From positions 6,846-47,647 of the forward strand of contig MHRM01000012.1 of the NCBI GenBank assembly GCA_001822575.1: a stretch of 40,802 nucleotides of DNA, given 5' to 3'. The translations under genes were made by a program, and so were the position numbers. Below the pieces are notes generated by a model. That model did not search any database and was not told the DNA's origin. It saw only the letters and a list, made by a program, of their open reading frames with translations. Positions 352 through 38,162 of the stretch are shown piece after piece. Numbering within the stretch: position 1 is the first letter of the stretch; the number at the start of each line of letters is the position of its first letter. This DNA comes from Candidatus Taylorbacteria bacterium RIFCSPHIGHO2_02_FULL_44_12 (GTDB lineage: Bacteria > Patescibacteriota > Minisyncoccia > Phycocordibacterales > PALSA-1337).

Positions 352-1260
352 CTATTTCTTATTCTTCTGACTCAATATCATAACTGCTTTGGTAACGATC
401 GGCAAAATGTCATTATAAAAATTAAGAGCTAGAATGTCGGAGAGCTTGAACCATTTGGCATCGTCAAGGCCTGGTTTGTCAGCCAATATGAGCTTGCCAA
501 AAGGAGCTTCAGCCAGATAGTAATGAACTTGTTTGCGGATTTTGCCTTTTTCAGGATCATTGGCTATATATTCATTGGAACCGAGATCGGCTTTGATGAC
601 GATGTCTAGACCGATCTCTTCTTTGGCTTTGGCGATAGTGCCGGCTTCGGGGGTTACGCCTTCGGCGATCTTGCCCTTGGTCAGGGTCCAATGGCCGAAG
701 ATGTCATGAACAAAAGCCATGTATGACTCTCCTTCAGATTGACTGTAGACAACTGCTCCGCCCAATCGCTGAACCGGCATATTCTCGTAAGGGACTTCAC
801 TGGTCTTTTTTTTTGTAGAAACTTCATCCTTGCCGGGTTCACCAAGCTCTTTGTAGACGGCTCCGAGAACACCATTGGCAAAGCGACCGCTGGCATCGCC
901 GCCGAATGTTTTGGCCAGCTCTATGGCTTCGTTGATGGCGACCTTGGCCGGAACTTCGCCACGATCAGAGAATAACAGTTCGTAAAGACCTAACCGCAAA
1001 ACATTCCGGTCAATAACCGATATCTTTTCCAGCGGCCAGTCTGGAGCGGCTTGGACGATTATCTCATTGAGATCTTTTAGTTTGGCTAGGACGCCTCTGA
1101 CGAGCTGTTCGGTGAACGATGAATCGCTGGTGCCTGGGGCAAATTCCAGGTTGTTGCGGGCCACGATAATATTGATCTCGGGACCTCCCAGCTGACCACG
1201 GAAATCCCACTCAAAGAGTGATTGGAGAGCTACCGAGCGTGAAAGATGACGATTTGCCAT
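352..1260 (-). CDS. nusB: NusB antitermination factor fused to a C-terminal Nudix-fold domain with a degenerate Nudix box
   Basis: 302 aa. The N-terminal ~140 aa is NusB-like (RSVALQSLFEWDF..., NVLRLGLYELLF, AINEAIELAKTFG). The C-terminal ~140 aa is Nudix-like: GHWTLTKGKIAEGVTPEAGTIAKAKEEIGL aligns to GX5EX7REUXEEXGU. The first E is V and RE is AK. Confidence 0.75.
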   Translation of the reverse strand: MANRHLSRSVALQSLFEWDFRGQLGGPEINIIVARNNLEFAPGTSDSSFTEQLVRGVLAKLKDLNEIIVQAAPDWPLEKISVIDRNVLRLGLYELLFSDRGEVPAKVAINEAIELAKTFGGDASGRFANGVLGAVYKELGEPGKDEVSTKKKTSEVPYENMPVQRLGGAVVYSQSEGESYMAFVHDIFGHWTLTKGKIAEGVTPEAGTIAKAKEEIGLDIVIKADLGSNEYIANDPEKGKIRKQVHYYLAEAPFGKLILADKPGLDDAKWFKLSDILALNFYNDILPIVTKAVMILSQKNKK

Positions 1261-2862: not shown

Positions 2863-2930
2863 ATGGCCAATATCGTGTAGTTTTGAAAAGTAAACAAAGC
2901 CCAGAAACGGGCACAACCAATGGAACAAAA

Positions 2931-4622
2931 ATGGCAGAAAATAATCCCTTGTCGATAATCATCGACAACGATTTAAATATTGTAGTCAACAACCCTTGGG
3001 TGGAGAAACTTGTTGCTGAAATCCGCCAGACCGGTAACGGCCAAGCAACGGTATGGCCTTCACAGGAAGTAAAGATGCCAATGGGGACTGATAACAAGGT
3101 CAGCCTTGACAACCTAAAGAGAAATATCTCTCCTGTTCCTCCCGGCTCGTACAGGGCAATAATCAAGGCCATCTACGCAATGGATGCCGGAGGAGAAACC
3201 GAAGAGAAGGTTATTGCATTCAAATTGACCAAAGAGCAGATAGACTGGCTATCGGCTCCGGCGATCAAGCCTCCAAAACCGACTATGCAACATCCACCAG
3301 AACCCACTTCTGAAGCGTCCGGGCAAGAAGAAGCCCAGCAGATGCTGAAAGAAGTTGAGGAAAGGGCAAGTGCCCGACTTGAGGAGGAGCGAAGAAGAGA
3401 AGCGGCTGCAAAACCGCCCACTCCACTTCCAGCAGCAAAAGTGCAACCGAAAAAGGAGACAGTTCGCATCTACTTGCCTTCGGCTCCAGCTGAGCCTGCC
3501 CCCGGAGCTCCAGTTGAAGAAAAGCCGGCACCATCGAAGGTGGCACCCGCTCAACCACAGGAAGACTTGCGAATCGGACTTCAAGCTGAGCGGATCAAAA
3601 AACAGGAAGCTGAAAAAGCTCAGCTTGCCAAACAACTTGAGGAGGAAAAGCGCGCTGCTCAAACGATCGTTGAGGAGGAGAAGAAAAAAACTGCCGAGGC
3701 TCAGAGGCTAGCTGCGGAATTAACTCTTCGATTGACGGCCGCTCAAGCATCGGTGACCGCAGCTCAAGCTGCTGCACCTCCAAGCGAGATGGTGAACTTC
3801 CAAAAAAAACTGGATGCCCTCGCCGCCAAAACCGCATCGCTGTCTCAACTTCCGCCCAACCCCCCACCACCCATTGAGGAAAAATCGTCTGACAAAAAAA
3901 CAGACAAACTTCGGGAGATTGCAAAAAAAGGCCTCCCTTGGTGGTTCATTGTCGGACTGGTGGCGCTCCTCTCTTTGATAGGAGGAACCATCTTCAAGAA
4001 AATGGTGTGGGAAAAGAGAGTAACCGACACACTCCCTCATTCCGGCGGTGCCTTGCAATCATTGCAAGAGGAAAACAAGGCGCTCAAAGAGTTGTTGGCA
4101 AGTAAATCCGTTTCTCCCGCCGCCATCCCAACGCCGACTAATGTCGCAGATGTCGGTGGCGCATCGCCCACCCCAACCAGTCCGGTTGGTAGTGGTGGAC
4201 AGTCTGTGGTGGTCAGTGGAAGCGGCAATGCTTTCCACGCTCCCCTCATCCTGAATGGAGCACACATTCCTCTGGTACCCGTGAGTTGGTTGTGCGTCAG
4301 CACAACAAATTCATTCTCGGTGCCGTCGGGATTGAACCTCCGCACTGGAACCGTGGTCTATTCTTGGGAGGAAGAACTCCTTCCGGGCCAGATCATGGAT
4401 CGACTCATAGATGGTCCCGAGTGGGAACTGTCTTATGAAGTCCGAGGTTTCAAATACCCTGTCATTGACACGGCCATATGCCTCAACAGCAAATGGGTTG
4501 AAACCTCCCAGTGGTCGTCATCGGATCGATCTGGGATCCCCACCACCGGCCAGCGTTTCAGAATTATTCCTGGAATGCAGTCTGTGACTATCACCTTCAC
4601 AGTGAGGAAAATCCGCCGCTAG
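2931..4622 (+). CDS. Large single-pass membrane protein with a Pro/Glu/Lys/Ala-rich coiled-coil region and a beta-rich C-terminal domain (hypothetical)
   Basis: The ORF is open from a TTG at 2883, and the first ATG is at 2931 (MAENNPLSIII...). It has a TolA-like charged helical stretch (EEERRREAAAKPP..., KKQEAEKAQLAKQLEEEKRAAQTIVEEEKKK). There is one TM helix (LPWWFIVGLVALLSLIGGTIF), then a PT-rich linker and a ~150-aa C-terminal domain. The start codon is uncertain. Confidence 0.6.
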   Translation: MAENNPLSIIIDNDLNIVVNNPWVEKLVAEIRQTGNGQATVWPSQEVKMPMGTDNKVSLDNLKRNISPVPPGSYRAIIKAIYAMDAGGETEEKVIAFKLTKEQIDWLSAPAIKPPKPTMQHPPEPTSEASGQEEAQQMLKEVEERASARLEEERRREAAAKPPTPLPAAKVQPKKETVRIYLPSAPAEPAPGAPVEEKPAPSKVAPAQPQEDLRIGLQAERIKKQEAEKAQLAKQLEEEKRAAQTIVEEEKKKTAEAQRLAAELTLRLTAAQASVTAAQAAAPPSEMVNFQKKLDALAAKTASLSQLPPNPPPPIEEKSSDKKTDKLREIAKKGLPWWFIVGLVALLSLIGGTIFKKMVWEKRVTDTLPHSGGALQSLQEENKALKELLASKSVSPAAIPTPTNVADVGGASPTPTSPVGSGGQSVVVSGSGNAFHAPLILNGAHIPLVPVSWLCVSTTNSFSVPSGLNLRTGTVVYSWEEELLPGQIMDRLIDGPEWELSYEVRGFKYPVIDTAICLNSKWVETSQWSSSDRSGIPTTGQRFRIIPGMQSVTITFTVRKIRR

Positions 4623-4900: not shown

Positions 4901-4973
4901 TTGATTTCGTAAACCAGAACTTCTCCGTAAGGGTTGTTCGCAAAAAGAAAGATAAAAAGTGAATGGAACGAAT

Positions 4974-5939
4974 ATGAATAGAGACGCAACGGAGTCACCC
5001 AGACTAAAGCCGTTTGGAAACCCAGTAAGCATTACAATCATCTGGGTAATAATCGTCTTGGGAGGAGTTGGTATTCTGCTGGCTCTGCTAGGAAAATTCT
5101 TGGGGATCATAGTATTCGTCATAGGAATGCTGATCCTGAAGTTCGGACTAACGAAATTCTCGCCAGATAAACCACGGATCGCCGGACTTCTGACCAGAAA
5201 TGGCGTTCCAATAAAAGGAAGAGATGGTAATGGTTATGTGGTTGGTGGAATTACCATTCTCATGGATTATTTCCCTTTTTACATAGGAGCCATTCCCATA
5301 GACATAACGAATCAGGATAAGGACTTCCCTGTGAAGATTACATGCAAGGGCACAGATCAAGATGGCAATGGAACAGTACAATTAGAAGGGATTGTTTCGG
5401 TTTCATGGAGACCAGATCTCGCCGACCTTCAGGACTATGTTGATTCCGGATCATCTCCAGAGAAAATCTGGGCACAACTGGACGACATAGTCGAAAACAG
5501 AGTCAGAAGCGAGTGTAAGGATAAATCTTGGTTATATCTTGTCCAAGAAGGGGGTGAGGCAGTCGGTGATTTTGTCAGGAGAAGCATTCTTGATCATTCC
5601 TCATTCGGGATAGATCTATTCAAAATACAGATTGTCTTGAACGCTCCCAGTGATTTAGTCAAAGGAGCGTTGAATCGGGAAATAGAGTTACAACAACGCC
5701 AGTCCGATCTATTGGACTATGCGACAATGCGTTTAGCGGCTAAAGAGCTTTGGGACGCATTTGAACTTGATCCAAAGACAAGGGGGAAATACGGACTGGA
5801 TGACTGTCTTCAGATGATTCAGAGACAACACCAGATCCAAGAAGGACGGTCTGTCTTGATAGATAGCGCTGGCGTATCCGGAGCCATCAACATAGCCAAC
5901 TTCACCGCGCAGCTAAATCAAAAAGGGGGCGGGTCATGA
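4974..5939 (+). CDS. Membrane-anchored SPFH (band 7 / prohibitin-like) domain protein
   Basis: There are two N-terminal TM helices. An SPFH-like core follows (FPFYIGAIPIDITNQDKDFPVKI..., GIVSVSWRPDLADLQDYV, FGIDLFKIQIVLNAPSDLVKGALNREIELQQRQ). An in-frame GTG at 4959 is an alternative start. Confidence 0.55.
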   Translation: MNRDATESPRLKPFGNPVSITIIWVIIVLGGVGILLALLGKFLGIIVFVIGMLILKFGLTKFSPDKPRIAGLLTRNGVPIKGRDGNGYVVGGITILMDYFPFYIGAIPIDITNQDKDFPVKITCKGTDQDGNGTVQLEGIVSVSWRPDLADLQDYVDSGSSPEKIWAQLDDIVENRVRSECKDKSWLYLVQEGGEAVGDFVRRSILDHSSFGIDLFKIQIVLNAPSDLVKGALNREIELQQRQSDLLDYATMRLAAKELWDAFELDPKTRGKYGLDDCLQMIQRQHQIQEGRSVLIDSAGVSGAINIANFTAQLNQKGGGS

Positions 5940-6388
5940 CAAAAATCAAATTGGGTGGATGGGTTATGTTGGTGTTGGTGTTTGGAATCCTATCTGTCTG
6001 GGTCCTCGGCCTCTGGCTAAAAGACCCATCAAAGCCGATGTTCGCGGAGACAGGCACAAGCCCCCGCCAGACACGAACATCTGCCAATTACACAAGCAAG
6101 AACTGGCTCCGCATCACCAACATTATGGTTGTCAGTGGTCAATGGTCGCAGGAAATCACCGTTGACAAAAGCCGAGGAGACGAAAGATTGGACTCCAGGC
6201 TCCTTACACCTGGCGTGTGGTGGCAGATCAAGGTGAATGGAGTGGAATATCCACCCATGCCTCCATTAAATTCCCCTGAAGCCAAGGCTGTGGAGTTGCC
6301 GGAGGTCAACTCCATGCAATGGCGAGTGATCCCCAATTCCTCGGTCTCTCTGGGGACAATTGAGTATTGGGTCACAAAAAGGTATTGA
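5936..6388 (+). CDS. Small membrane-anchored protein, translationally coupled to the SPFH gene (hypothetical)
   Basis: 150 aa. The ATG overlaps the upstream TGA (ATGA at 5936-5939). It has one N-terminal TM helix (GWVMLVLVFGILSVWVLGLWL) and a beta-rich C-terminal part. Confidence 0.6.
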   Translation: MTKIKLGGWVMLVLVFGILSVWVLGLWLKDPSKPMFAETGTSPRQTRTSANYTSKNWLRITNIMVVSGQWSQEITVDKSRGDERLDSRLLTPGVWWQIKVNGVEYPPMPPLNSPEAKAVELPEVNSMQWRVIPNSSVSLGTIEYWVTKRY

Positions 6389-6500: not shown

Positions 6501-6588
6501 CAAAAAATCCCCCGTAGTCGAATCCCCCTTTGAAAAAGGGGTGGATTGATGCCGAGCGAAGCGAGGTATCAAGAGGGGGGATTTTTGG
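6501..6588. repeat. Nested palindromic element at a convergent gene junction (likely bidirectional terminator)
   Basis: The outer stem pairs AAAAATCCCCC (6503-6513) with GGGGGATTTTT (6576-6586). The inner hairpin is AATCCCCCTTT-GAAA-AAGGGGTGGATT. A/T runs lie on both sides. Confidence 0.65.
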
Positions 6589-6596
6589 CAAGGGAT

Positions 6597-6881
6597 TCAA
6601 ATCCCCTTGAGTGTATTTGACACCAGATAAATAATGCCCCAGGCCGAGATCATGATGAACATCCCGATGATCCCTCCCAACATATGATTGCGGCCCTGTT
6701 CGCGAGCCGCTGGGTCTCCCCCTTTCCAGATCATTTCAAAAATCCCATAAGCAAAAACAACCACTCCGACTGCGAACATAAGTCCGACGATCGGAGTAAT
6801 TATATTTGATACTATAGGCTGTATAGCCTGCCCGAACGATTCAGGTCCTGATGCGGCGTTTGCTATAGAGGCTAGAGTCAT
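6597..6881 (-). CDS. T4SS pilin-like (TrbC/VirB2-type) small membrane protein, paralogue 1
   Basis: 94 aa with two TM helices separated by a short charged loop (KGGDPAAREQGRNHMLGGIIGMFI). It has the same architecture as the four genes upstream. Confidence 0.6.
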   Translation of the reverse strand: MTLASIANAASGPESFGQAIQPIVSNIITPIVGLMFAVGVVVFAYGIFEMIWKGGDPAAREQGRNHMLGGIIGMFIMISAWGIIYLVSNTLKGI

Positions 6882-6908
6882 AATACAACATAGAGAACCG
6901 GAGAATTA

Positions 6909-7343
6909 TTATCTCGGAGTCTGAATGTCAATTAAAGGAAAATCTCCAGCAGGAGCCCTATTGGAACCAGTGTTGAATGTGGTTGTCAAGATTCGCACAA
7001 GCCCCCAAATGGAAAGAATGATAAACAAACCAACAATACCCCAAAGAATCTTTTGTCCGGCTTCTTGGCGCGCCGCGGCATCGGAGCCTCCAATTATCAG
7101 ATATCTAACAACGCTGTAAACAATCCAGATGACAGCAACAGAAATCAAAACATACACCACAAAATTACCAATCCTAGAAAATTGGTTTGAAATTGCGGCG
7201 GTATTAGTTGTAAAAGCGTTTACATTATAGTCTGGACCAGGGGGCGGTATGGTATGATTTGAAGCATAACTCTGAACCGCTAATCCTTGCGCAAACACAA
7301 AAGCCACAACTAAACATACTACATAGGTAATAATTTTCTTCAT
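6909..7343 (-). CDS. T4SS pilin-like small membrane protein, paralogue 2
   Basis: 144 aa. A signal peptide is followed by two TM helices with the loop IIGGSDAAARQEAGQKILWGIVGLFI. Confidence 0.6.
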   Translation of the reverse strand: MKKIITYVVCLVVAFVFAQGLAVQSYASNHTIPPPGPDYNVNAFTTNTAAISNQFSRIGNFVVYVLISVAVIWIVYSVVRYLIIGGSDAAARQEAGQKILWGIVGLFIILSIWGLVRILTTTFNTGSNRAPAGDFPLIDIQTPR

Positions 7344-7492
7344 AGTGATGATGAAACTAATAAATAATAATTAACCCCCTCATTCTATCTCATCCGCAAA
7401 TGGCTGGAAAGGCCCAACTGTGGATATGAGAATAGAAAGGCCTTTTGTAAAACTCTGGAAATAACAAGAAATGCACGCGAGGATACCACCGC

Positions 7493-7912
7493 TTATCTCC
7501 CAGGATTACTTCCTGAATTTGGATTTGAAGAAGAAGGAGGAAAAAGGTTACCAAAGTCCGTCCAGGAAGAAGGCCTATTGGCTTGGTTGCCGAGATTGTC
7601 CCCAAATGTATTGCGAAGAATGTTGACGATGCCCCAGAATGAAAGGATCACGAAGAAACCTATCAGACTATACATCAGATATAGACCCGCCTGTTTCCTG
7701 CCCTCGGCGCTATCATTCGGCCGGATGAAATACTGAATAATATACCAGACGAACATGATCACCGCCAAGCCCATCAACAAGAATAGGACCTGGTTCAGAT
7801 AATCAATGATCTGATTGATCAAATACTTGAGATCCTTATCCGCCGCCAAAACCACAAATGGCGCGAATATGGCGAACATGCTAGCGGAAATGATTTTTGT
7901 TTTGTATGTCAT
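7493..7912 (-). CDS. T4SS pilin-like small membrane protein, paralogue 3
   Basis: 139 aa. A signal peptide is followed by two TM helices with the loop RPNDSAEGRKQAGLYLMYSLIGFFV. The C-terminal tail is Ser/Asn/Pro-rich. Confidence 0.6.
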   Translation of the reverse strand: MTYKTKIISASMFAIFAPFVVLAADKDLKYLINQIIDYLNQVLFLLMGLAVIMFVWYIIQYFIRPNDSAEGRKQAGLYLMYSLIGFFVILSFWGIVNILRNTFGDNLGNQANRPSSWTDFGNLFPPSSSNPNSGSNPGR

Positions 7913-7924
7913 GTTGTTTTTATA

Positions 7925-7967
7925 ATTATAACTAGTTACTAGTAACCAGCAACCAGTTACCAGTAAC
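7925..7967 (-). promoter_or_regulatory. Internal promoter (-10 TATAAT) preceded by two GTTAC-N2-GTAAC palindromes (candidate operator pair)
   Basis: The minus strand reads GTTACTGGTAAC-TGGTTGCTG-GTTACTAGTAAC-TAGT-TATAAT-12 nt-ATG(7912). The two 12-nt palindromes are 21 bp apart centre to centre. Confidence 0.4.
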
Positions 7968-8482
7968 TATCTACCCTCCAAGGCATTCCTAGCACTATCC
8001 GTCACTCCCTTATTAACCGTACCTGTAGACTCCAAAGTGCTGATGATGATAGACACCATCAGTCTCGCCCCCAAAACTATAGCCACTCCAGCCACGATCC
8101 ACGACAACCATATTCCGTTCTTTTTCAATTCAGCTGGATTGCCGCGAGAGAGAATAAATCTCAAACCAACCCAGACTATCAGAAGAACGGCAAAAATGAT
8201 CACAATGTAGCTGAATATTTCTAGAAACTTTTCTATCAAAGCCCCTATTGAACCTAGATTTTTGCTCAATGGGTTCTGCAAAGGGATTATCTTGCCATTG
8301 CCGGCAGTGCCGCCCGCGGAACTTGGATTTACTGAATTACCAGCCGGCCCACCTACGGTCGTGTTATTTGCTGGAGGATTTTGGGCATATGAGATTGATG
8401 GTACAGAAACAAGAAATGTTCCAATTGTTAAGACGAGTAGGAAGTAGGAATAAGGAGGTAGGAAGTATGGGGGGGTTTTCAT
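7967..8482 (-). CDS. T4SS pilin-like small membrane protein, paralogue 4
   Basis: 171 aa. It starts with an MKTPPYFL signal region and a Gly/Asn/Pro-rich spacer. The motif NPL...SIGALIEKFLE and two TM helices with the loop SRGNPAELKKNGIWLSWIVAGVAIV follow. Confidence 0.65.
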   Translation of the reverse strand: MKTPPYFLPPYSYFLLVLTIGTFLVSVPSISYAQNPPANNTTVGGPAGNSVNPSSAGGTAGNGKIIPLQNPLSKNLGSIGALIEKFLEIFSYIVIIFAVLLIVWVGLRFILSRGNPAELKKNGIWLSWIVAGVAIVLGARLMVSIIISTLESTGTVNKGVTDSARNALEGR

Positions 8483-8506
8483 GATGTTAAAATGAAATAC
8501 AAAATC

Positions 8507-8992
8507 CTAGGAGCCGAGCAAGAATTTGAAGCCTTGATTGTCCGTAAGCCATGAAAGAAGCTGATAGACGATAAACCAGGCTGACAGCATAAGTATAAAC
8601 CCGAGACCGATCTTTGGGAACATACTCGTGGCTTTTGAGATATTTGCGGGCTTGCCGGTGATATATAAATACCCTGCCCATGAAAAGCCAAATATGGCCG
8701 CGAAAACACCGCCCACCATCATGATATTCAAAATATGCTGAACTTGTAGCATCAGTCCCTTGAAATCACATGGAACATATTTTGGATCATAATCTGGACT
8801 GGAAGGTTTGTTGGCTCCCGCCGGACCATCGCAAACGATAAATTTGAAGATTCCTCTGCCCTGACTGTCTGTTTCGCTAATATTGATAGAAGGAGCGGGT
8901 TGGGCATTGACTGAAGAGACATTTATGATCAGAGAAAAAACCATAAGTGCGAATAAGGAAGTGGGAATTAGGAAGTAGGGGGGAGTTTTCAT
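8507..8992 (-). CDS. T4SS pilin-like small membrane protein, paralogue 5
   Basis: 161 aa with the same MKTPPYFL N-terminus as paralogue 4. It has two Cys residues in the exposed part and two TM helices with the loop TGKPANISKATSMFPKIGLGFILML. Confidence 0.6.
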   Translation of the reverse strand: MKTPPYFLIPTSLFALMVFSLIINVSSVNAQPAPSINISETDSQGRGIFKFIVCDGPAGANKPSSPDYDPKYVPCDFKGLMLQVQHILNIMMVGGVFAAIFGFSWAGYLYITGKPANISKATSMFPKIGLGFILMLSAWFIVYQLLSWLTDNQGFKFLLGS

Positions 8993-9001
8993 GATATTGT
9001 C

Positions 9002-10294
9002 TTATTCTTCTAGAGCCTGCTGTAATAGCGAACTATATTGATCCTGGGCATCATTCAAGGCTTGGGTGATACTGCGACGACCGCTAGTCAGAGACTCAAC
9101 CAAAGTTGTGAAGACTTGTCGCGAATCAGCCGGATCGGTATCTGGCCAGGTTCGAGCCACTAAGGCCGCCTGGTTGAATATGGATATATACGAATCCGAA
9201 GAGCCTTGAGTTATGAGGTCGCGACGGACTGTCGGCAAATACATGGTCCTGGAAAGTTCCGCTATATTCTCGGGCAAAGTCAAGGCCTTAATGACTTCGT
9301 AAGTAGCGGATTGATTGGGCGAAGCTCGAACAATTGATAAGCCGTACATTTTGCCGTAAGTGGCTTTTTGTCCGCCTGTCCGTAGCTGTGGCAAAAGAGC
9401 CGCGTCAAAGTTCAGGTTGGGATTTTTGTCGTGAATATCACCGAGCTCCGAAGCAAAACCAAAATAGATAGCCAATGTGCCGCCCAAAAAGGCTGATTTG
9501 GACTGTGGCAATCCCCTATTCCAGGAATAATCTTCATTGGAAGGATCGGCAAAGCGGACGAAAAATTGGAGAGGTGAAGACAAGCTTGGATTCTGGGTGC
9601 CAAACAAGGTGATGGAAAAACCATTGTTAGTTCTAGAGACTATAGGGTTGCCTGCCTGCAAGAATAGAGATCCAAGCAATTCACGGGCATTGGTAATATT
9701 GGAAAACTCGCCCATAGCCAAAGCCGACTTGCGAATATTGCCATTTGTATCTTTGGTTGTCAGTTTGGCAACCAGAGAATCAAACTCATCCCAATAGCGC
9801 GGATAAGTAGCGATGCCGGCAGAATCAAAAGTATCTCTATTCCAGAACATGATCAAGGGATCAATGGTAAATGGCAAAGCCATAAGACCATCCGGGAAGA
9901 GATATATTTCCCCTTCTTGAATATAAGTATCACGAAAGTCCCGTTGGGATATTAATTCATAAGGTATGGGGTAAATCTTGTCAGTGTGGGGCAGAAACAT
10001 ATCAGCCGTTATAAGAATGGCGTCCGGTCCTCTGCCGCGGGCCAAAACCGATATGAAGTCTCGCGAGAATTGCTCGGGGCGTTTCTCCGTGTATGAGACG
10101 GTGAATTTTTGAGTGGAAGCATTGCTCACCATAGCCGCGTATTGTTCAAAAATATCAGAAGGAAATGTCCCCCAGATTGTTATTGGCGGCAAAGTCTCCC
10201 CGCTTCCCGAACCTTTGTAGGTGGCAAAAGCCGTCACCCCGGCGATAATAAAAAGTATAAATATGGACAAGGTTATGATTTGAAATTTACTCAT
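9002..10294 (-). CDS. Extracellular solute-binding protein (ABC-type, family 1 / MalE-like), membrane-anchored, no cognate permease or ATPase nearby
   Basis: 430 aa with an N-terminal TM anchor. SBP-like blocks are present (ITIWGTF, DAILITADMF, PFTIDPLIMFWNRDTFDSAGI...YWDEF). Confidence 0.65.
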   Translation of the reverse strand: MSKFQIITLSIFILFIIAGVTAFATYKGSGSGETLPPITIWGTFPSDIFEQYAAMVSNASTQKFTVSYTEKRPEQFSRDFISVLARGRGPDAILITADMFLPHTDKIYPIPYELISQRDFRDTYIQEGEIYLFPDGLMALPFTIDPLIMFWNRDTFDSAGIATYPRYWDEFDSLVAKLTTKDTNGNIRKSALAMGEFSNITNARELLGSLFLQAGNPIVSRTNNGFSITLFGTQNPSLSSPLQFFVRFADPSNEDYSWNRGLPQSKSAFLGGTLAIYFGFASELGDIHDKNPNLNFDAALLPQLRTGGQKATYGKMYGLSIVRASPNQSATYEVIKALTLPENIAELSRTMYLPTVRRDLITQGSSDSYISIFNQAALVARTWPDTDPADSRQVFTTLVESLTSGRRSITQALNDAQDQYSSLLQQALEE

Positions 10295-10310
10295 ATGATA
10301 TAGGCTGGAA

Positions 10311-10832
10311 TTATCGGCTTAATATCAGACCATAGTGGTGATCACCGGCTGGAAATGACTGTTCCCAGACGAAGCCGTTCTTCTCAAAAAGAATTCTGGT
10401 TTCAGCCGAAGAAATACTATTTTTCGGGGACATAGAACCGCCTGGTTCCCAGTCTACCACCAGGACCTTGCCTCCAGTTTTCAAAACTCGCTTAATTTCC
10501 AGGACAAAATCATCTCTTTTTGAGATTTCAATCTGAAAAAGAATGTTGGAAGCTATCACCCTGTCGGCCATGGATTCGCGCAACTTCGTCCCGCCGATCT
10601 TCTCCAGATCTCCAACTATGACCTCTATGTTACGAATACCTTGGGCGGAAGAAATAGAACGCAATCTCTCCAAAAGATCTTTTTGGATATCTATGGCATA
10701 AACACGACCGCTGGCTCCAACCCTTCGGCCAGATTCTATGCTATAAAAACCAGAACCGGCCCCAAGGTCAACGACCTTCATGCCTTCAACTAGACCAAGC
10801 TTGGCGATATTGGCGGCCGGTTCGGAGAACAT
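10311..10832 (-). CDS. Class I SAM-dependent methyltransferase
   Basis: 173 aa. Motif I is VVDLGAGSGFYS, post-I is VYAIDIQ, and GGKVLVVDW follows. Confidence 0.8.
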   Translation of the reverse strand: MFSEPAANIAKLGLVEGMKVVDLGAGSGFYSIESGRRVGASGRVYAIDIQKDLLERLRSISSAQGIRNIEVIVGDLEKIGGTKLRESMADRVIASNILFQIEISKRDDFVLEIKRVLKTGGKVLVVDWEPGGSMSPKNSISSAETRILFEKNGFVWEQSFPAGDHHYGLILSR

Positions 10833-10838
10833 TCCCTC

Positions 10839-10847
10839 ATTATAACA
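10839..10847 (-). promoter_or_regulatory. Extended -10 promoter (TGTTATAAT) 6 nt upstream of the methyltransferase ATG (leaderless configuration)
   Basis: The minus strand reads CTTGTTATAAT-GAGGGA-ATG. Confidence 0.5.
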
Positions 10848-10887
10848 AGAAATGGATGGGAAGGAGAGATATTGTGGGGACAGAATT

Positions 10888-11085
10888 GTTTTTCAATGTC
10901 TCGCCTTGCCTGTCCGCAAACAACGCCCAAAGCCGAATCATCTCCTTCGCAAACCCGATTTTTAAAAAAATAAAGATTATATCCTGTATACAACTCGCGT
11001 ATTGCTAAAGAATCAGGGTTTGTGAAGGAGATGATCGGCGGAGGGCGGAGGTTTGATAGCAGGCAAGGCGAGACATTACAAAAAT
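10888..11085. repeat. ~198-nt long imperfect palindrome (MITE-like) abutting the gyrA stop codon
   Basis: A perfect 18-bp inverted repeat pairs AATGTCTCGCCTTGCCTG (10895-10912) with CAGGCAAGGCGAGACATT (11060-11077). A second conserved arm block pairs GAATCATCTCCTTCGCAAACCCGATT (10935-10960) with AATCAGGGTTTGTGAAGGAGATGATC (11011-11036). Confidence 0.8.
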
Positions 11086-24418: not shown

Positions 24419-24865
24419 TCACCAAACATCCTGACTAATAACTAATATAGAATTATCACTAATCCTGACTGATCTTTTACCAAACTTCCGAATACCAGAA
24501 AGGGCAGCAGTGACTGAAATTTCAACATCATAAGATGAAAGATCAGGATTGGGATTGATCACTGAAACTTCACAGCCCAGAGATCGTATTGTTGTAGTCC
24601 CATTCATGAAGAAATCCTTGGCCAGGCTAACAGTAGCTGTGTCTAGACAAGAATGAGTATTGAGCTCCACCTGAATACGCATTTCCTTGCGAAAAACGCT
24701 ATCGGCATAGAGGACTGCCGCGGACAAGGTTGACAGAGAAAAAGCCATAGTGCCCGCTGATACCAGAATAACTGCTATCAGCGCAGTAAATCCGCCGGAA
24801 TGATTGTTAAAACGATTGCTAATCCTTGGGAGATGATTGTGATTATGGAGTAACATAAGCATCAT
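24419..24865 (-). CDS. Type IV pilin-like protein (minor pilin / pseudopilin)
   Basis: 148 aa. A prepilin-like N-terminus (...NNHSGG|FTALIAVILVSAGTMAF) is followed by a beta-rich domain with 2 Cys. The +5 residue is Ile rather than Glu. Confidence 0.6.
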   Translation of the reverse strand: MMLMLLHNHNHLPRISNRFNNHSGGFTALIAVILVSAGTMAFSLSTLSAAVLYADSVFRKEMRIQVELNTHSCLDTATVSLAKDFFMNGTTTIRSLGCEVSVINPNPDLSSYDVEISVTAALSGIRKFGKRSVRISDNSILVISQDVW

Positions 24866-25043
24866 TAATTTTATGAATTAGTCTAATATCGCCAGTCTGA
24901 ATAATCCAAGCATAAGACAAAAAACCAGACAAAAGCATAGATAACAAAGAGGTGTATATCAACACTTCTATGATAGTCAGACCATTTGATCTTGAATATT
25001 CCAATGGCCGATATTTTTTGATTTTAAGGAAAAAATATTTCAT
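24843..25043 (-). CDS. Small type IV pilin-like protein
   Basis: It has the class III signal motif SNG|LTIIEVLIYTSLLSMLL with Glu at +5. The start was taken at MKYFF (ATG at 25043), and the ORF track extends to 25088. Confidence 0.6.
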   Translation of the reverse strand: MKYFFLKIKKYRPLEYSRSNGLTIIEVLIYTSLLSMLLSGFLSYAWIIQTGDIRLIHKINDAYVTP

Positions 25044-26421
25044 ATATCTTGGGCATAGCCGCATCCAGGATGTACAAATGATCGCCATCGCAAGTCAAAG
25101 TCCGAGGGAAAGCAGGTAATGAATAAATTTCCGATGAAGTGGAAACCAGAGAACGATTGAATATCATCAATTCTCGCCCAGCCTGCCTCGTAGCCACATA
25201 AGTGTGGTTTTTGTCCATAACAAGACCATAAATACCGCCTGGAATATCCAGAGAAAATGGAGCATCCAAACTGGCTGAAGACAGAGCGGGCCAACTGAAC
25301 AATTCATGGTCCTTGGCAATGTTGAATCCGCCGACCGTCCTGCCAAAACCAAGTGCTCCCTCAAACATAGAAAGGACCTTCCCTTCCTGCCTTTCCCAGC
25401 CAGAAGGTGTCAATAAACTCAATAAAAACGGACGGAATGGATCGGCAATATCTATAACTCTTAATTGCGGGAAATGAGCCGAGGCGATATAGGCTAGAGA
25501 ATTATTGACGGAAATATCACCGACCCGACTACCGATCTCCATTCCAGCAATCTTGATCGGTGCCAGCGGATTTTGAATATCAATAATAGAAAACTCCTGA
25601 CCATCCCACTTCTCGGTACCAAGATATACACGATCAAATCGGCTGAATATACTGCTTCCCCAAGGGAGTGTTGCTGTGGCGTATGGCAGTGGCAAACGGT
25701 ATGTTCGCTCCAAAATCGGAGACTCCAGCCTATCTAGACGAATGATATGAAGCTGTGCCAAAGTGCTAGCCGCCGCCGCAAAAATCCTTTTGCCGACAAT
25801 AGAAAGAGAAACGAGGCCCGGGCCAGTATTCAGTGTGGAAAGAATAGACGGTGAATCTGGATGGCGAATATCAGCAATGATGATATCTGGGTCACTGGCA
25901 GTAGCCGAGTCCGTGGAAATATAAGCTATGCCATTTCGGACTTCCAGATCGGTCAATGGTAAAGAAGGATTAATCGGTAATATGATCCGCCGTATTAACG
26001 GCTGTTGAATCGCAGGAAATAAGCCCTCAAAAGAGCCGATAATTTTATTATTCCTAAAATCCGCCGAACAAAGAGGTGTGCCGGTAGACACAATAAGATT
26101 TGGAAGTACGGGCCTCCTTATAGCAGTGAAAACGAGGTAATCTAAAGTAATATTATTTTCAATCAGATCATTTCCATAAGAATTTTGATTTACAACGCCA
26201 AGACCAGATTGATAATTGTCAATTAGAACTCTCCTATCACGAGCTCGCTCAAATATATTACCCGCGACCAAGTAAGCCTGGGCTATCACAGCTACAAAAA
26301 GAGCCGATAAAGCCAAAGCCAACATTATGTCCATGACGATAAAACCTTTCTTCGGACAAACTGATCCTGGTTCGGATTTGTTGGCAATCCTATCAATGTT
26401 TAAGTACTCTAGAAATATCAT
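25024..26421 (-). CDS. Large pilin-like protein: prepilin-type N-terminus fused to an LVIVD-repeat beta-propeller (putative pilus tip / adhesin subunit)
   Basis: 465 aa. KKG|FIVMDIMLALALSALFVAV is followed by repeated motifs of the type hydrophobic-x-(I/V)-D-I-x-x-P. These are DIIIADIRHPDSP, FSIIDIQNPLAP, LRVIDIADPFRP and LHIIRLDRLESP. Confidence 0.6.
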   Translation of the reverse strand: MIFLEYLNIDRIANKSEPGSVCPKKGFIVMDIMLALALSALFVAVIAQAYLVAGNIFERARDRRVLIDNYQSGLGVVNQNSYGNDLIENNITLDYLVFTAIRRPVLPNLIVSTGTPLCSADFRNNKIIGSFEGLFPAIQQPLIRRIILPINPSLPLTDLEVRNGIAYISTDSATASDPDIIIADIRHPDSPSILSTLNTGPGLVSLSIVGKRIFAAAASTLAQLHIIRLDRLESPILERTYRLPLPYATATLPWGSSIFSRFDRVYLGTEKWDGQEFSIIDIQNPLAPIKIAGMEIGSRVGDISVNNSLAYIASAHFPQLRVIDIADPFRPFLLSLLTPSGWERQEGKVLSMFEGALGFGRTVGGFNIAKDHELFSWPALSSASLDAPFSLDIPGGIYGLVMDKNHTYVATRQAGRELMIFNRSLVSTSSEIYSLPAFPRTLTCDGDHLYILDAAMPKIYEIFFP

Positions 26422-27445
26422 AGATTGGTAACATAATGGATATGGCTATAGCCGCCACGATGCACCCCATGGCCGCCATCATTAGGGGTTCCAGAAGAGC
26501 GGTGGATCTCTTCAATCCATGATCAATATCTCGCCCCAGAATATCGGCCGCCCGAATCAGACAAAGACCCAAAGTGCCCGAAGCTTCTCCTGCCGAAACG
26601 ATCGGGGTAATATAGCCGGGGATAGTCTTGTCGGAAAAAACACGACTCAAAGACCCGCCGCCGGTGATATCAATGACTCCTTTTTCCAGGATATTCCGCA
26701 AAGGCAGGAATGGCAGAACTAGAACAGCGTTTTTATAAGCCAAAATAACCGACATCCCAGATTCAACCAAAGTGCCAGCAGAACGCAAAAATACGGCCAG
26801 AGAATAATCCTGAATGATTCTGCCGATTATCGGTATTGCTTTGAGCAAGCGTTGATATAGATATCTGAAATGTTGATATTTTTTGTAAGCCCAATAAGCT
26901 CCAAAAACGATCAGGAGAACACCAATCACAAACACTAACCCGTAAGACAATAAACCCTCCGATACAGCCATCACTAATCGCGTCAAAAACGGCAAGGGCA
27001 CATTTAGACTTTTGAGCAGCGGAATGATCTGTGGCATGATGCCGCGCATCAACCCAATAGTAATAATGCCAGCGAACAAGGCGATGGTCAGAGGATAGAC
27101 TAGAGCTGATATACATCTTTTTAACAATTCATCTTGGCGCTCCAAGAGAATACGGGCATCGCCAAGAGCTTTGGCCAACAAGCCAGATTTCTGTCCATGC
27201 TGTATGAGACTGACGGATGTGGCAGACATGCCTGTAAATTGGGAAAGAGCCCGCGACAAGGATCCGCCTGATTGGACCATTGCATAGACTTGTCGTAACG
27301 ACCCAGAATGGCCCTTGGAAATACCTTGGAGAGCGGCCTCCAAAGCAGAAGATATCGTAACTCCCGCTGAAATACACAATTCCAACCGCTCCAAAAGAAG
27401 TATGACATCTCTCCGCTTCCAATTTTTATTTCTTATTTTTTTCAT
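26393..27445 (-). CDS. pilC: Type II secretion / type IV pilus platform protein (GspF / PilC / ComGB family)
   Basis: There are two T2SSF-like repeats and three TM segments. The start was taken at MKKIRNK (ATG at 27445). The 41-codon N-terminal extension in the ORF track runs through the palindromic repeat at 27468-27615. Confidence 0.8.
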   Translation of the reverse strand: MKKIRNKNWKRRDVILLLERLELCISAGVTISSALEAALQGISKGHSGSLRQVYAMVQSGGSLSRALSQFTGMSATSVSLIQHGQKSGLLAKALGDARILLERQDELLKRCISALVYPLTIALFAGIITIGLMRGIMPQIIPLLKSLNVPLPFLTRLVMAVSEGLLSYGLVFVIGVLLIVFGAYWAYKKYQHFRYLYQRLLKAIPIIGRIIQDYSLAVFLRSAGTLVESGMSVILAYKNAVLVLPFLPLRNILEKGVIDITGGGSLSRVFSDKTIPGYITPIVSAGEASGTLGLCLIRAADILGRDIDHGLKRSTALLEPLMMAAMGCIVAAIAISIMLPIYDISRVLKH

Positions 27446-27467
27446 AAAAATAGTATTAGATCCACAA

Positions 27468-27615
27468 GCCCGACGAACATGTGCCCTGCGCTGCCTCGCA
27501 ATGCGTTTGAGCCCCCGAGAATGACCCCTATTTTGGTCGCTCCCGCGAGCCAAAATAGGGTTTGCCATTCGACGGGGCGACCTTGCGAGGCAGCGCGGGG
27601 CACATGTTCGTCTGG
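27468..27615. repeat. 148-nt palindromic element made of two inverted half-units, in the pilB-pilC intergenic region
   Basis: The 30-bp outer stem pairs GACGAACATGTGCCCTGCGCTGCCTCGCAA (27472-27501) with TTGCGAGGCAGCGCGGGGCACATGTTCGTC (27583-27612), with one G-T pair. The central hairpin is CCCTATTTTGG-TCGC-TCCC-GCGA-G-CCAAAATAGGG (27526-27560). Single half-units occur at 18623-18682 and 36121-36186. Confidence 0.85.
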
Positions 27616-27625
27616 TTCTTTGTCT

Positions 27626-28759
27626 TCATGTAGATAAAACTCTAATAATTTCTTCCGGAGTCGTTATACCCCATTGAACTTTTTCGGCTCCATCCTCCGA
27701 CATTGGACGAAAACCATGTGCCGAAGCATATTCTTGGCAGGCTGACAATGATCCAGAATCAGCGATTATCTTCTTCATAGCCTCATCAATAGAGAAAACC
27801 TCGGCTATGATTGACCGACCAGCATAACCACTATGACGACAAACAGTACAGCCAACCCCAAAACACTCACGGCATATAGTCCTGACTAGTCTTTGACCAA
27901 TGATCAATCGAATAGTGGCGGCAATGAGATAACGGTCAACGCCCATATCAACAAGTCTAGTCAAAACTTCAGAGGCTGAACCGGTATGGATGGTAGACAA
28001 AACAAGATGTCCGGTCAGAGCAGTATGGACTGCCACCCGAGCAGTCTCTCTATCACGAATCTCACCGACCATGATGATGTCCGGATCCTGGCGAACGGCC
28101 GCTCTTAACCCGCTTGAAAATGTTACACCGCTTGATTCGCGAGCATGAACTTGTCTAATTCCGGCAATTTCGTACTCTATTGGATCCTCAAGAGTGATGA
28201 TAGATATAGGTTGTCTGGCCTTGATGGATAGACAAGCATGGAGAGTGGTAGTTTTGCCAGAACCAGTCGGTCCGGCCACCAATATCAGTCCTGTAGTGGC
28301 CTGAAGAGCTCTATCAATAGCCTGAACATGCTCCGGAGTAAAACCAAGCCGAGCAAATGACAATTCTGTCAGAGGTCTGGCGGGCAATAGTCTAACCACG
28401 GCATTTTCTCCGTGGTATGTCGGCATGAATGATACACGGACATTGTATAAAGCAGATGCTATACACGCTCTCCAACGACCATCTTGAGGAATGGCATGAA
28501 TATCTGTTCGTGCTCCAGAGAGGATTTTGAGCCTAGCTATCATTTCTTCATGAAAATCCTTAGACAGTACCCCAGCTTCCTCCATCACTCCATCAATACG
28601 CAAACGGATCAAAATATCCTCTATTCGTGGATCAATATGAATATCTGAAGCTCGCGAATGGGCGGCCTGAACAAGGATATCTTCAATGATTTCCATGGCT
28701 GTCTTTGCTTGAATGGGAAACAAAACTTTTAACTCTTTCTTTGTCTGTATTTCATTCAT
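27626..28759 (-). CDS. pilB: Type II/IV secretion ATPase (GspE / PilB / ComGA family)
   Basis: It has Walker A (GPTGSGKTTT), Asp and His boxes, Walker B (DPDIIMVGEIRD) and a tetra-Cys motif (CRECFGVGCTVCRHSGYAGR). The start was taken at the ATG at 28759 (MNEIQ), and a TTG lies at 28765 in the track. Confidence 0.88.
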   Translation of the reverse strand: MNEIQTKKELKVLFPIQAKTAMEIIEDILVQAAHSRASDIHIDPRIEDILIRLRIDGVMEEAGVLSKDFHEEMIARLKILSGARTDIHAIPQDGRWRACIASALYNVRVSFMPTYHGENAVVRLLPARPLTELSFARLGFTPEHVQAIDRALQATTGLILVAGPTGSGKTTTLHACLSIKARQPISIITLEDPIEYEIAGIRQVHARESSGVTFSSGLRAAVRQDPDIIMVGEIRDRETARVAVHTALTGHLVLSTIHTGSASEVLTRLVDMGVDRYLIAATIRLIIGQRLVRTICRECFGVGCTVCRHSGYAGRSIIAEVFSIDEAMKKIIADSGSLSACQEYASAHGFRPMSEDGAEKVQWGITTPEEIIRVLST

Positions 28760-28765
28760 AGTCAA

Positions 28766-38103: not shown

Positions 38104-38109
38104 GGGCTG

Positions 38110-38115
38110 ATTATA
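38110..38115 (-). promoter_or_regulatory. -10 box TATAAT 6 nt upstream of the dnaG ATG (leaderless configuration)
   Basis: The minus strand reads TATAAT-CAGCCC-ATG(38103), immediately after the rpoC terminator. Confidence 0.45.
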
Positions 38116-38119
38116 ACTG

Positions 38120-38150
38120 AAAAAACAAAACCCCGCCGAAGCGGAGTTTT
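38120..38150 (-). terminator. Rho-independent terminator downstream of rpoC
   Basis: The minus strand reads AAAACTCCGC-TTCG-GCGGGGTTTT-GTTTTTT. It has a TTCG tetraloop and a T-run. Confidence 0.8.
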
Positions 38151-38162
38151 GTGGAGTTTACT

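Follow-up and report, generated by a model that had tools for sequence, protein, structure and literature searches.

A methyltransferase, a solute-binding protein and five VirB2-like pilin families form a conserved module in Taylorbacteria-like Patescibacteria

The VirB2/TrbC/TraA pilins of the F, T, RP4 and H pili combine a signal peptide with a hydrophobic helical hairpin closed by a short basic loop, and both of their termini are expected to face outside. In the Patescibacteria, or Candidate Phyla Radiation (CPR), such proteins are encoded in series: 441 tandem arrays of 2-11 VirB2-like genes (PF18895/PF04956), with a mean identity of 25%, have been reported from 383 assemblies and were read as a means of antigenic variation or host-range adaptation by analogy with Bartonella and Anaplasma (PMC12102498). 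[quoted passage not shown] Reviews describe the function of this system as “completely unknown”, with uptake from the host put forward as a speculation. A set of six PF18895 genes (SEML1_0014-0019) of Candidatus Southlakia epibionticum stands beside a VirB4/PrgI/VirB6-like cluster, and each of them was scored as essential (PMC10633639). Here we analyze a stretch of 40,802 nucleotides from the Candidatus Taylorbacteria genome RIFCSPHIGHO2_02_FULL_44_12 (contig MHRM01000012.1, positions 6,846 to 47,647; hereinafter the window), which codes for a methyltransferase (MT), a solute-binding protein (SBP) and five small hairpin proteins (PIL1-PIL5) in a single cluster (Table 1). This cluster is the Paceibacteria (Taylorbacteria-like) version of the patescibacterial VirB2-like pilin array, and comparison with related genomes indicates that its MT, SBP and pilin genes are one conserved module.

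Like the array of Southlakia, that of the window is a tandem set of 5-6 divergent PF18895 pilins with two transmembrane (TM) helices in a monoderm patescibacterium, and in both cases the paralogues are apparently non-redundant, with six being essential there and fixed families being maintained here. However, the Southlakia array abuts SEML1_0006-0013 (the VirB4/PrgI/VirB6-like genes) and comes without an SBP or MT, whereas the present module has both, along with two box-bearing promoters, and lies in a window that lacks a T4SS machinery gene. With the VirB2/TrbC pilins the window's proteins share a hairpin core of about 70 aa, but they differ from them in belonging to a monoderm organism, in the presence of five obligatory paralogues as against one major pilin, in their long N- and C-terminal extensions and in having one paralogue that carries or docks a 400-aa binding protein. 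While VirB2-like arrays of the Patescibacteria are thus already published, neither the papers we consulted on patescibacterial T4SS arrays nor full-text searches tie an SBP or methyltransferase to a pilin array. What is new here is the obligatory and sometimes fused SBP partner, the methyltransferase, the five fixed paralogue families and the module-specific dual promoter.

We read the genes of the window from its open reading frames (ORFs) and assigned them to families by their Pfam hidden Markov model (HMM) scores relative to the cut-offs. The seven minus-strand genes at 6597-10832 are present exactly where the initial annotation had placed them, PIL1 beginning 9 nt after the stop codon of the SBP gene, and an HMM built from PIL1-5 detects no sixth pilin copy in the window. 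Searches with the SBP retrieved 564 related stretches from the GTDB collection (one genome per species), the best 80 of which were analyzed with 10 kb on either side, and iteration of the HMM from the five window pilins yielded 352 pilin ORFs in these loci. The gene map MT-SBP-(4-6 pilins) recurs nearly everywhere: 57 of the 65 loci with at least 2.8 kb of sequence after the SBP have 4-6 same-strand pilin genes there, and the lower counts are largely artefacts of crude ORF picking. This was the co-occurrence check that the initial annotation had called for, and it came out in favor of the proposed linkage. MT is found directly 5′ of the SBP in 65 of 69 loci, with a median gap of 6 nt and a 4-nt overlap in 12 of them, while the gene upstream of MT varies, being gyrA in 28 of 48; thus, MT is part of the module and gyrA lies outside it. 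The arrangement gyrA-MT-SBP with 5 or 6 PF18895 genes after it is also seen for two more distant SBPs on adequate contigs, which score 387 and 399 bits with the SBP profile. Identical copies of the SBP sequence occur in groundwater and soil metagenomes (21 contigs), with the gene order unchanged on all contigs of sufficient length, and the sources label the SBP homologues as Patescibacteria, Paceibacterota or Taylorbacteria. The SBP family is large, with 1,420 clusters at 50% identity matching at E <= 1e-30. Five of the related loci (L007, L056, L068, L071 and L080) have an additional pilin-like ORF of 76-252 aa between gyrA and MT that matches the hairpin HMM and runs divergently from MT; it may represent a sixth family or simply be a spurious reading frame of the opposite strand.

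The proposal that the small proteins belong to the T4SS-pilin family is borne out by the HMM check, as PF18895 (T4SS_pilin) is the best Pfam match for all five: PIL1 scores 25.9, PIL2 30.3, PIL3 37.4, PIL4 34.0 and PIL5 40.8 bits. Against the gathering cut-off of 26.6 bits PIL2-5 pass and PIL1 falls 0.7 short, and among 94 PIL1 homologues many are annotated with PF18895 on record. PIL2-5 are 22-28% identical to PIL1 and align with it along a common helical hairpin with a short charged loop. That five such genes stand in tandem cannot be a matter of chance; 80 other species genomes show the arrangement too.

Around the common hairpin each protein has a character of its own. PIL1 has a variable putative signal peptide, a small two-Cys ectodomain (F..VCDGP...YVPCDF, with C54 and C75 invariant among homologues) and a very conserved two-TM hairpin; its AlphaFold2 model (predicted local distance difference test, pLDDT, of 79) is a long helical hairpin with helices at 77-112 and 115-151. 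In PIL2 a putative signal peptide is followed by a Gly/Asn/Pro-rich low-complexity segment, an NPL motif, a second TM helix (TM2) with an Arg and a short tail. The hairpin of PIL3 comes directly after a putative signal peptide and is followed by a conserved C-terminal tail, while PIL4 consists of a putative signal peptide (MKK...), a short N-terminal segment, the hairpin and a tail. Polar or charged residues are conserved in TM2 of several families, for instance a Gln in PIL1 and an Arg in both PIL2 and PIL4. The signal peptide that had been ascribed to all five proteins was scored as a hydrophobic N-terminal segment: such a segment is found in 60/67 PIL1, 68/71 PIL2, 49/68 PIL3 and 62/80 PIL4 orthologues, but a signal-like segment occurs in just 1/52 PIL5 orthologues and the PIL5 of the window appears to have no signal peptide.

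When the pilins of the related loci are assigned to their best-matching window paralogue, for which the best and second-best scores are well apart, 34 loci show the order 1-2-3-4-5 and another 10 show 1-2-3-4-4-5; of the remaining arrays two are rearranged and most are partial with the order kept (contig ends, missed ORFs). Apart from this duplication of PIL4 in about 10 arrays, no position shows recent duplicates. The N-terminal parts are indeed divergent between paralogues, as had been noted, but they are conserved among orthologues, and each family retains its own motifs. By these assignments the five pilins are old orthologous families in a fixed order rather than fast-diversifying copies, and the earlier view of them as diversified surface subunits is not supported. 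The combination of orthologue-conserved segments and fixed positions instead points to PIL1-5 being non-redundant parts of a single assembly, which is the opposite of what antigenic variation entails.

The more specific claim of membership in the canonical TrbC/VirB2 family found no such backing. PF04956 (cut-off 27.9 bits) gives 21.1 bits for PIL2, 10.8 for PIL5 and no match for PIL1, PIL3 and PIL4; CagC likewise gives weak matches. The NCBI model NF045849 for a pilin-like protein of a Mycoplasma integrative and conjugative element (ICE) comes closer, with 35.2 bits for PIL3 and 33.8 for PIL5 against a cut-off of 40, and these near-cut-off scores fit the reported MPF-FATA ancestry. The protein described by this model, Mbov_0395, is likewise a two-TM pilin-like protein (80 aa) of a monoderm T4SS, but it is encoded by a single gene in a mobile element, whereas here we have a chromosomal five-gene set with an SBP.

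The SBP matches both SBP_bac_1 and SBP_bac_8 at 46.7 and 45.3 bits, above the respective cut-offs (E ~1e-11 to 1e-12). In a comparison of its profile with the PDB, the mannooligosaccharide-binding protein 4r9f comes first (E 4e-18), with sugar and maltodextrin binders next. The structural comparison suggested in the initial annotation agrees: for the model of a fusion homologue that is 57% identical, the top Foldseek matches are 4r9g/4r9f (E about 5e-22; TM-scores normalised to the target of 0.73-0.76 with 4r9g), which are mannooligosaccharide-bound CpMnBP1 structures, with Thermotoga maritima MalE following. The invariant aromatics W41, W151, W168, Y256, W258 and W383 suggest a sugar site. 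An N-terminal TM helix at about residues 6-24 is as conserved as the globular domain (mean commonest-residue fraction of 0.70 in both), as compared to 0.27 for the PIL1 signal peptide; hence, it looks like a retained, functional and uncleaved TM helix rather than a cleaved signal. The SBP had been described as having no permease or ATPase partner and the window as having no VirB4, VirB6 or VirD4, and both statements hold among the larger ORFs of the window. Further, a motif-based test of 10 kb on either side of the SBP in 81 loci found no conserved ABC (ATP-binding cassette) permease or ATPase, there being six scattered ORFs with Walker A and LSGGQ motifs and zero EAA-loop permeases. Within this reach, the SBP is truly an orphan of ABC partners.

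Its partner appears to be the pilin array. We identified 11 SBP-PIL1 fusion entries, among which one pair is identical; the 10 distinct proteins are 560-659 aa long and belong to at least four clades. The nearest unfused relative is 84% identical in clade A and 45% identical in clade D, while in clades B and C the members are 70-76% identical to each other and 61-66% identical to their nearest unfused relatives. This spread and these identities indicate that the fusion arose repeatedly and was kept over long divergence. The fusions analyzed by hydropathy (clades A-C) have exactly three hydrophobic segments, i.e., the SBP N-terminal helix and the pilin hairpin, with a polar linker replacing the hydrophobic core of the PIL1 signal peptide; without the loss of that core the two ectodomains could not both stay outside. 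The AlphaFold2 model of one fusion (P0050, pLDDT 77) shows a TM helix at 5-27, the SBP domain at 40-435, a disordered linker at 437-481 and helices at 513-547 and 551-586. The conserved adjacency, the recurrent fusions and a cluster-specific promoter box shared along the module (see below) link the SBP functionally to the pilins, as had been surmised from their proximity, and the SBP most likely works with them and not as part of an ordinary transporter. As the SBP-PIL1 unit would be held by three membrane helices, PIL1 probably stays at the membrane base and does not enter a filament.

Partly similar arrangements are known from other settings. In the ABC importers GlnPQ and OpuA of Gram-positive bacteria, a single polypeptide joins the substrate-binding domain to that of the membrane. 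There, as here, a binding protein is tethered or fused to its membrane subunit and the two states alternate between lineages, but the partner in the present module is a VirB2-like hairpin and no nucleotide-binding subunit is encoded in the module or nearby. The type IV pilin PilB of Streptococcus sanguinis is described as a modular pilin with an adhesin module (PMC8179133). In PilB and in the SBP-PIL1 fusions alike, a pilin moiety joined to a globular ligand-binding module gives the assembly a binding function; however, PilB is a type IV pilin of unrelated fold and machinery, and the module here is an SBP that is usually a separate TM-anchored protein and only sometimes fused.

The MT is a cytoplasmic class I enzyme with a Rossmann-type SAM-binding domain that matches Methyltransf_31 (63.6 bits), Methyltransf_25 (54.3 bits) and Methyltransf_11 in Pfam, at E 2e-17 for this group, with 3dh0 as its nearest PDB match (E 4.5e-15). 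Against NCBIfam it shows only generic sub-threshold matches, and no equivalog reaches its cut-off.

The initial annotation had posited a single leaderless promoter for the entire cluster. Its leaderless nature is upheld: a TATAAT-like hexamer stands exactly 6 nt before the MT ATG in 41 of 62 related loci, and in several more an over-called MT ORF reads the TATAAT as “YN”, which together strongly supports a leaderless MT transcript from this promoter (P1). It is not single, since a second promoter (P2) precedes PIL4. A TCC[AC]CA box is found within 88 nt upstream of MT in 48 of 62 loci, mostly at -48/-49 from the ATG, and the P1 box of the window (TGTCCCCA) is the same as the box before PIL4 and stands at the same distance to the -10 element, which is 36-37 nt in the two promoters of the window. 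The gaps within the arrays have medians of 5.5, 18 and 9 nt, as opposed to about 85 nt before the last PIL4 copy, and there, in 53 of the 59 cases scored, a hexamer resembling TATAAT follows 35-38 nt downstream of the first base of the box (T)AATCCACAG; nearly all of 60 aligned segments upstream of PIL4 conserve a P2-type promoter. The composite pattern TCC[AC]CA-N29-32-TAnA[AC]T has 127 matches in 81 loci, of which 53 lie before MT, 57 before PIL4 and 17 elsewhere. This concentration marks the box as specific to the module rather than a general promoter element. We also considered ATCC[AC]CA alone as a general promoter element and rejected it, as its 349 matches against about 279 expected are near chance and concentrated before PIL4. 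Thus, the TCC(A/C)CA box is presumably a module-specific cis-element and the site of a dedicated regulator, and P2, judging from its conservation, is a second promoter that drives PIL4-PIL5. From their own conserved promoter we infer that these two pilins may be made in larger amounts.

Other nucleic acid elements of the cluster are less widely shared. By RNA folding, the stem-loop at the end of PIL2 reaches -22.3 kcal/mol (z -5.25). It is unique within the window and specific to this genome, the related PIL2-PIL3 gaps having a median of just 18 nt, and may serve to stabilise or process the mRNA, unless the site provides an extra PIL3 promoter. The terminator at the end of the unit is tentative, having been read from the sequence and not reported by a consensus terminator scan. 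Rfam and tRNA scans show no RNA family or tRNA in the cluster, its spacers of 243 nt and 149 nt included. The former spacer, between gyrA and MT (10833-11075, minus strand), also contains a T-rich run, a further -10-like site (GGATATAAT) and, behind an AAGGAG, an ORF of 33 codons whose end falls within the P1 -10 region. Elsewhere in the window, GTTATAAT is found 7 nt before the ATG of dnaG (36202-38103), within 38103-38155 on the minus strand and after a terminator-like hairpin that follows rpoC; as a second candidate leaderless promoter, it suggests that this genome commonly employs leaderless mRNAs.

Taking these observations together, we consider it an even call that the module specifies a heteromeric VirB2-like envelope structure, assembled by a T4SS, in which the SBP is a glycan-binding receptor joined via PIL1. 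In such a structure PIL1-5 would span the membrane as hairpins whose termini face outward and whose charged loop faces the cell interior, and would together form a short VirB2-type pilus or conduit, or the membrane base of one. PIL4 and PIL5, with their own promoter, would probably be the bulk subunits and PIL1-3 specialised minor ones. The SBP would be held on the outer face of the membrane by its own TM helix and, docked with or fused to PIL1, would furnish a carbohydrate-binding head, used either for attachment of the cell to glycans of a host or the environment or for the capture of a ligand that then passes along the pilins. Assembly would probably be driven by VirB4-type T4SS machinery encoded elsewhere in the genome, and MT would be a co-regulated cytoplasmic accessory. 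In Paceibacteria VirB4 is usually encoded near dnaA, away from this module, and it is present in 14 of 23 Taylorbacteria metagenome-assembled genomes (MAGs) in a portion of Table S1 of the published survey (PMC12102498).

Several points weigh against this envelope structure. The other 9 of those 23 MAGs are VirB4-negative in the same portion of the table, perhaps owing to MAG incompleteness (PMC12102498), and no virB4 cluster adjoins the array in the window or in the contexts of the two distant representatives (L089 and L091), nor is any T4SS machinery seen in the Pfam-annotated contexts of these and of L001 within 6-10 kb on either side. A profile of 60 hairpin cores retrieves no solved conjugative pilin from the PDB at E <= 10, its best match, Sec61-gamma at E 0.3, being noise. 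Foldseek likewise finds only generic hairpins at E > 1 for PIL1 in the PDB and so no fold link, and its matches to a type III secretion system needle, a small terminase and ATP synthase c are uninformative for family assignment. A TM-anchored SBP tied to PIL1 would be hard to extract into a filament, which argues that at least PIL1 remains embedded in the membrane, and the role of MT is left unexplained. Finally, no RNA runs are listed with the cluster sequence, only DNA metagenomes from groundwater and soil.

The hairpins could also serve without any secretion machinery. Five of them (10 TM helices) and the SBP helix might constitute a T4SS-independent, SBP-dependent membrane device, i.e., a small hetero-oligomeric channel, transporter or receptor that takes up or senses the SBP ligand without an ABC ATPase, in the manner of SBP-dependent secondary transporters and with a parallel in the ABC importers that have their binding and membrane domains fused. 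We regard this as unlikely, even though it would readily accommodate the fusion of the SBP to a membrane subunit in at least four lineages, the conservation of its TM helix to the degree expected of a functional one, the polar or charged residues conserved in TM2, the dedicated promoters and the orphan state of the SBP, which has no ABC partner within 10 kb in any of the 81 loci, as well as the fact that virB4 does not adjoin the module and is scored as negative in the nine Taylorbacteria MAGs mentioned above. In other Patescibacteria the same hairpin family lies inside a T4SS cluster and is essential together with it, we know of no transporter family made of five separate two-TM subunits, an energy-coupling component is not evident, and the long disordered linker of the fusions suggests tethering rather than rigid docking. 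A related possibility, which we likewise hold to be rather improbable, is that the SBP hands a carbohydrate ligand of host or environmental origin to a heteromeric conduit made of the five hairpins, acting alone or within a T4SS, with a dedicated factor binding the box and MT modifying a component or the cargo.

A more deflationary account takes the cluster for mere synteny in small genomes that rearrange little: the SBP would serve a distant ABC importer, MT would be a housekeeping enzyme and the pilins would belong to a T4SS. The frequent presence of gyrA 5′ of MT shows that an outside gene can indeed be such a neighbor, but the module is kept where that upstream neighbor differs, MT and the SBP are set nearly or actually overlapping, the SBP-PIL1 fusions are recurrent, long-lived and adapted in their topology, and the box common to P1 and P2 is nearly absent elsewhere, all of which makes this account distinctly improbable. 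Least probable of all is an antigenically variable array of alternative surface subunits that broaden the host range or allow evasion. This is the published reading of CPR arrays, made by analogy with Bartonella and Anaplasma (PMC12102498), and the low identity of the paralogues to PIL1, their differing exposed segments and the doubling of PIL4 would suit it. However, each position is a distinct orthologous family in an order that is constant across 80 species, the ectodomain motifs are kept among orthologues (CDGP...C in PIL1, NPL in PIL2 and the tail of PIL3), the copy number is nearly fixed at five and there are no recent duplicates save those of PIL4. On the strength of these comparisons it appears largely refuted here.

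Table 1. Genes and candidate regulatory elements of the MT-SBP-pilin module, in window coordinates
Feature	Coordinates	Strand	Description
MT	10311..10832	-	173 aa; cytoplasmic class I SAM (S-adenosylmethionine)-dependent methyltransferase (Pfam and PDB)
SBP	9002..10294	-	430 aa; membrane-anchored MalE-type (oligosaccharide-class) solute-binding protein
PIL1	8507..8992	-	161 aa; two-TM hairpin protein, fused to SBP in other lineages
PIL2	7967..8482	-	171 aa; two-TM hairpin protein
PIL3	7493..7912	-	139 aa; two-TM hairpin protein
PIL4	6909..7343	-	144 aa; two-TM hairpin protein
PIL5	6597..6881	-	94 aa; minimal hairpin pilin
P1 upstream box TCCCCA	10875..10880	-	begins 36 nt before the -10 hexamer
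P1 extended -10 TGTTATAAT	10839..10847	-	TATAAT at 10844-10839, ends 6 nt before the MT ATG
P2, candidate internal promoter	7375..7424	-	box TCCACA 7424-7419, weak -35 TTTCCA 7410-7405, -10 TAGAAT 7387-7382
Stem-loop, 17-bp near-perfect	7933..7969	-	over the PIL2 stop; followed by GTTATAAT (7932-7925), not a U-tract
Terminator-like end of unit	6502..6541	-	hairpin CCCCTTTTTCAAAGGGGG, then GGGGGATTTTTT; read from sequence

The rest of the window is an ordinary patescibacterial chromosome with genes for gyrA, S1, Pth, signal peptidase, FtsA/FtsZ, HisRS, sigma-70, DnaG and RpoC. A separate type IV pilus cluster at 24419-28765 (minus strand) codes for a PilB-like ATPase (T2SSE, 27626-28765), a PilC-like platform protein (T2SSF, 26393-27568), a 465-aa protein without a family and a 148-aa protein with the prepilin-like N-terminus GFTALIAV; the organism therefore has type IV pili besides the VirB2-like set. 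Three plus-strand genes converge on the pilin array: 2883-4622, whose 579-aa product is rich in Ala, Glu, Lys and Pro and has a TM helix at its center, 4959-5939, whose 326-aa product starts with two TM helices, and 5936-6388, for a 150-aa TM-anchored protein. None of them has a Pfam, NCBIfam or PDB match, and the 150-aa protein shows no similarity to the C-terminus of the 579-aa one. Genes of similar size and orientation lie 3′ of the array in many relatives, but we left them out of the module, as 5936-6388 and 4959-5939 are detectable in only about 19 of 49 loci. The many overlapping ORFs of the 3-5 kb region raised the possibility of an rRNA; Rfam finds none there, and the region is the low-complexity Ala/Glu/Lys/Pro-rich protein gene. 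A PF05635 gene (1761-2147), coding for a four-helix protein of the 23S-rRNA-intervening-sequence type, is located between tRNA-Lys(CTT) and tRNA-Leu(TAG) in the region 1660-2266, with no rRNA in the window. At 352-1260 (minus strand) is the gene for a 302-aa protein in which NusB and a C-terminal NUDIX hydrolase domain are fused.

In biological terms, the module attaches a ligand-binding protein of well-understood fold to pilins that are essential in Southlakia, the sole species tested, and does so across a large and widespread SBP-bearing group. Through its soluble ectodomain, the SBP offers an experimentally tractable handle on the function of these pilins. The antigenic-variation reading of such arrays is corrected, at least in this lineage, and the conserved promoter pair, one of them leaderless, with its operator-like box, is useful in a group in which characterised promoters are almost absent. 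Should the SBP indeed pass its ligand to a conduit formed by the hairpins, patescibacterial T4SS pilins would for the first time be tied to nutrient acquisition in concrete molecular terms.

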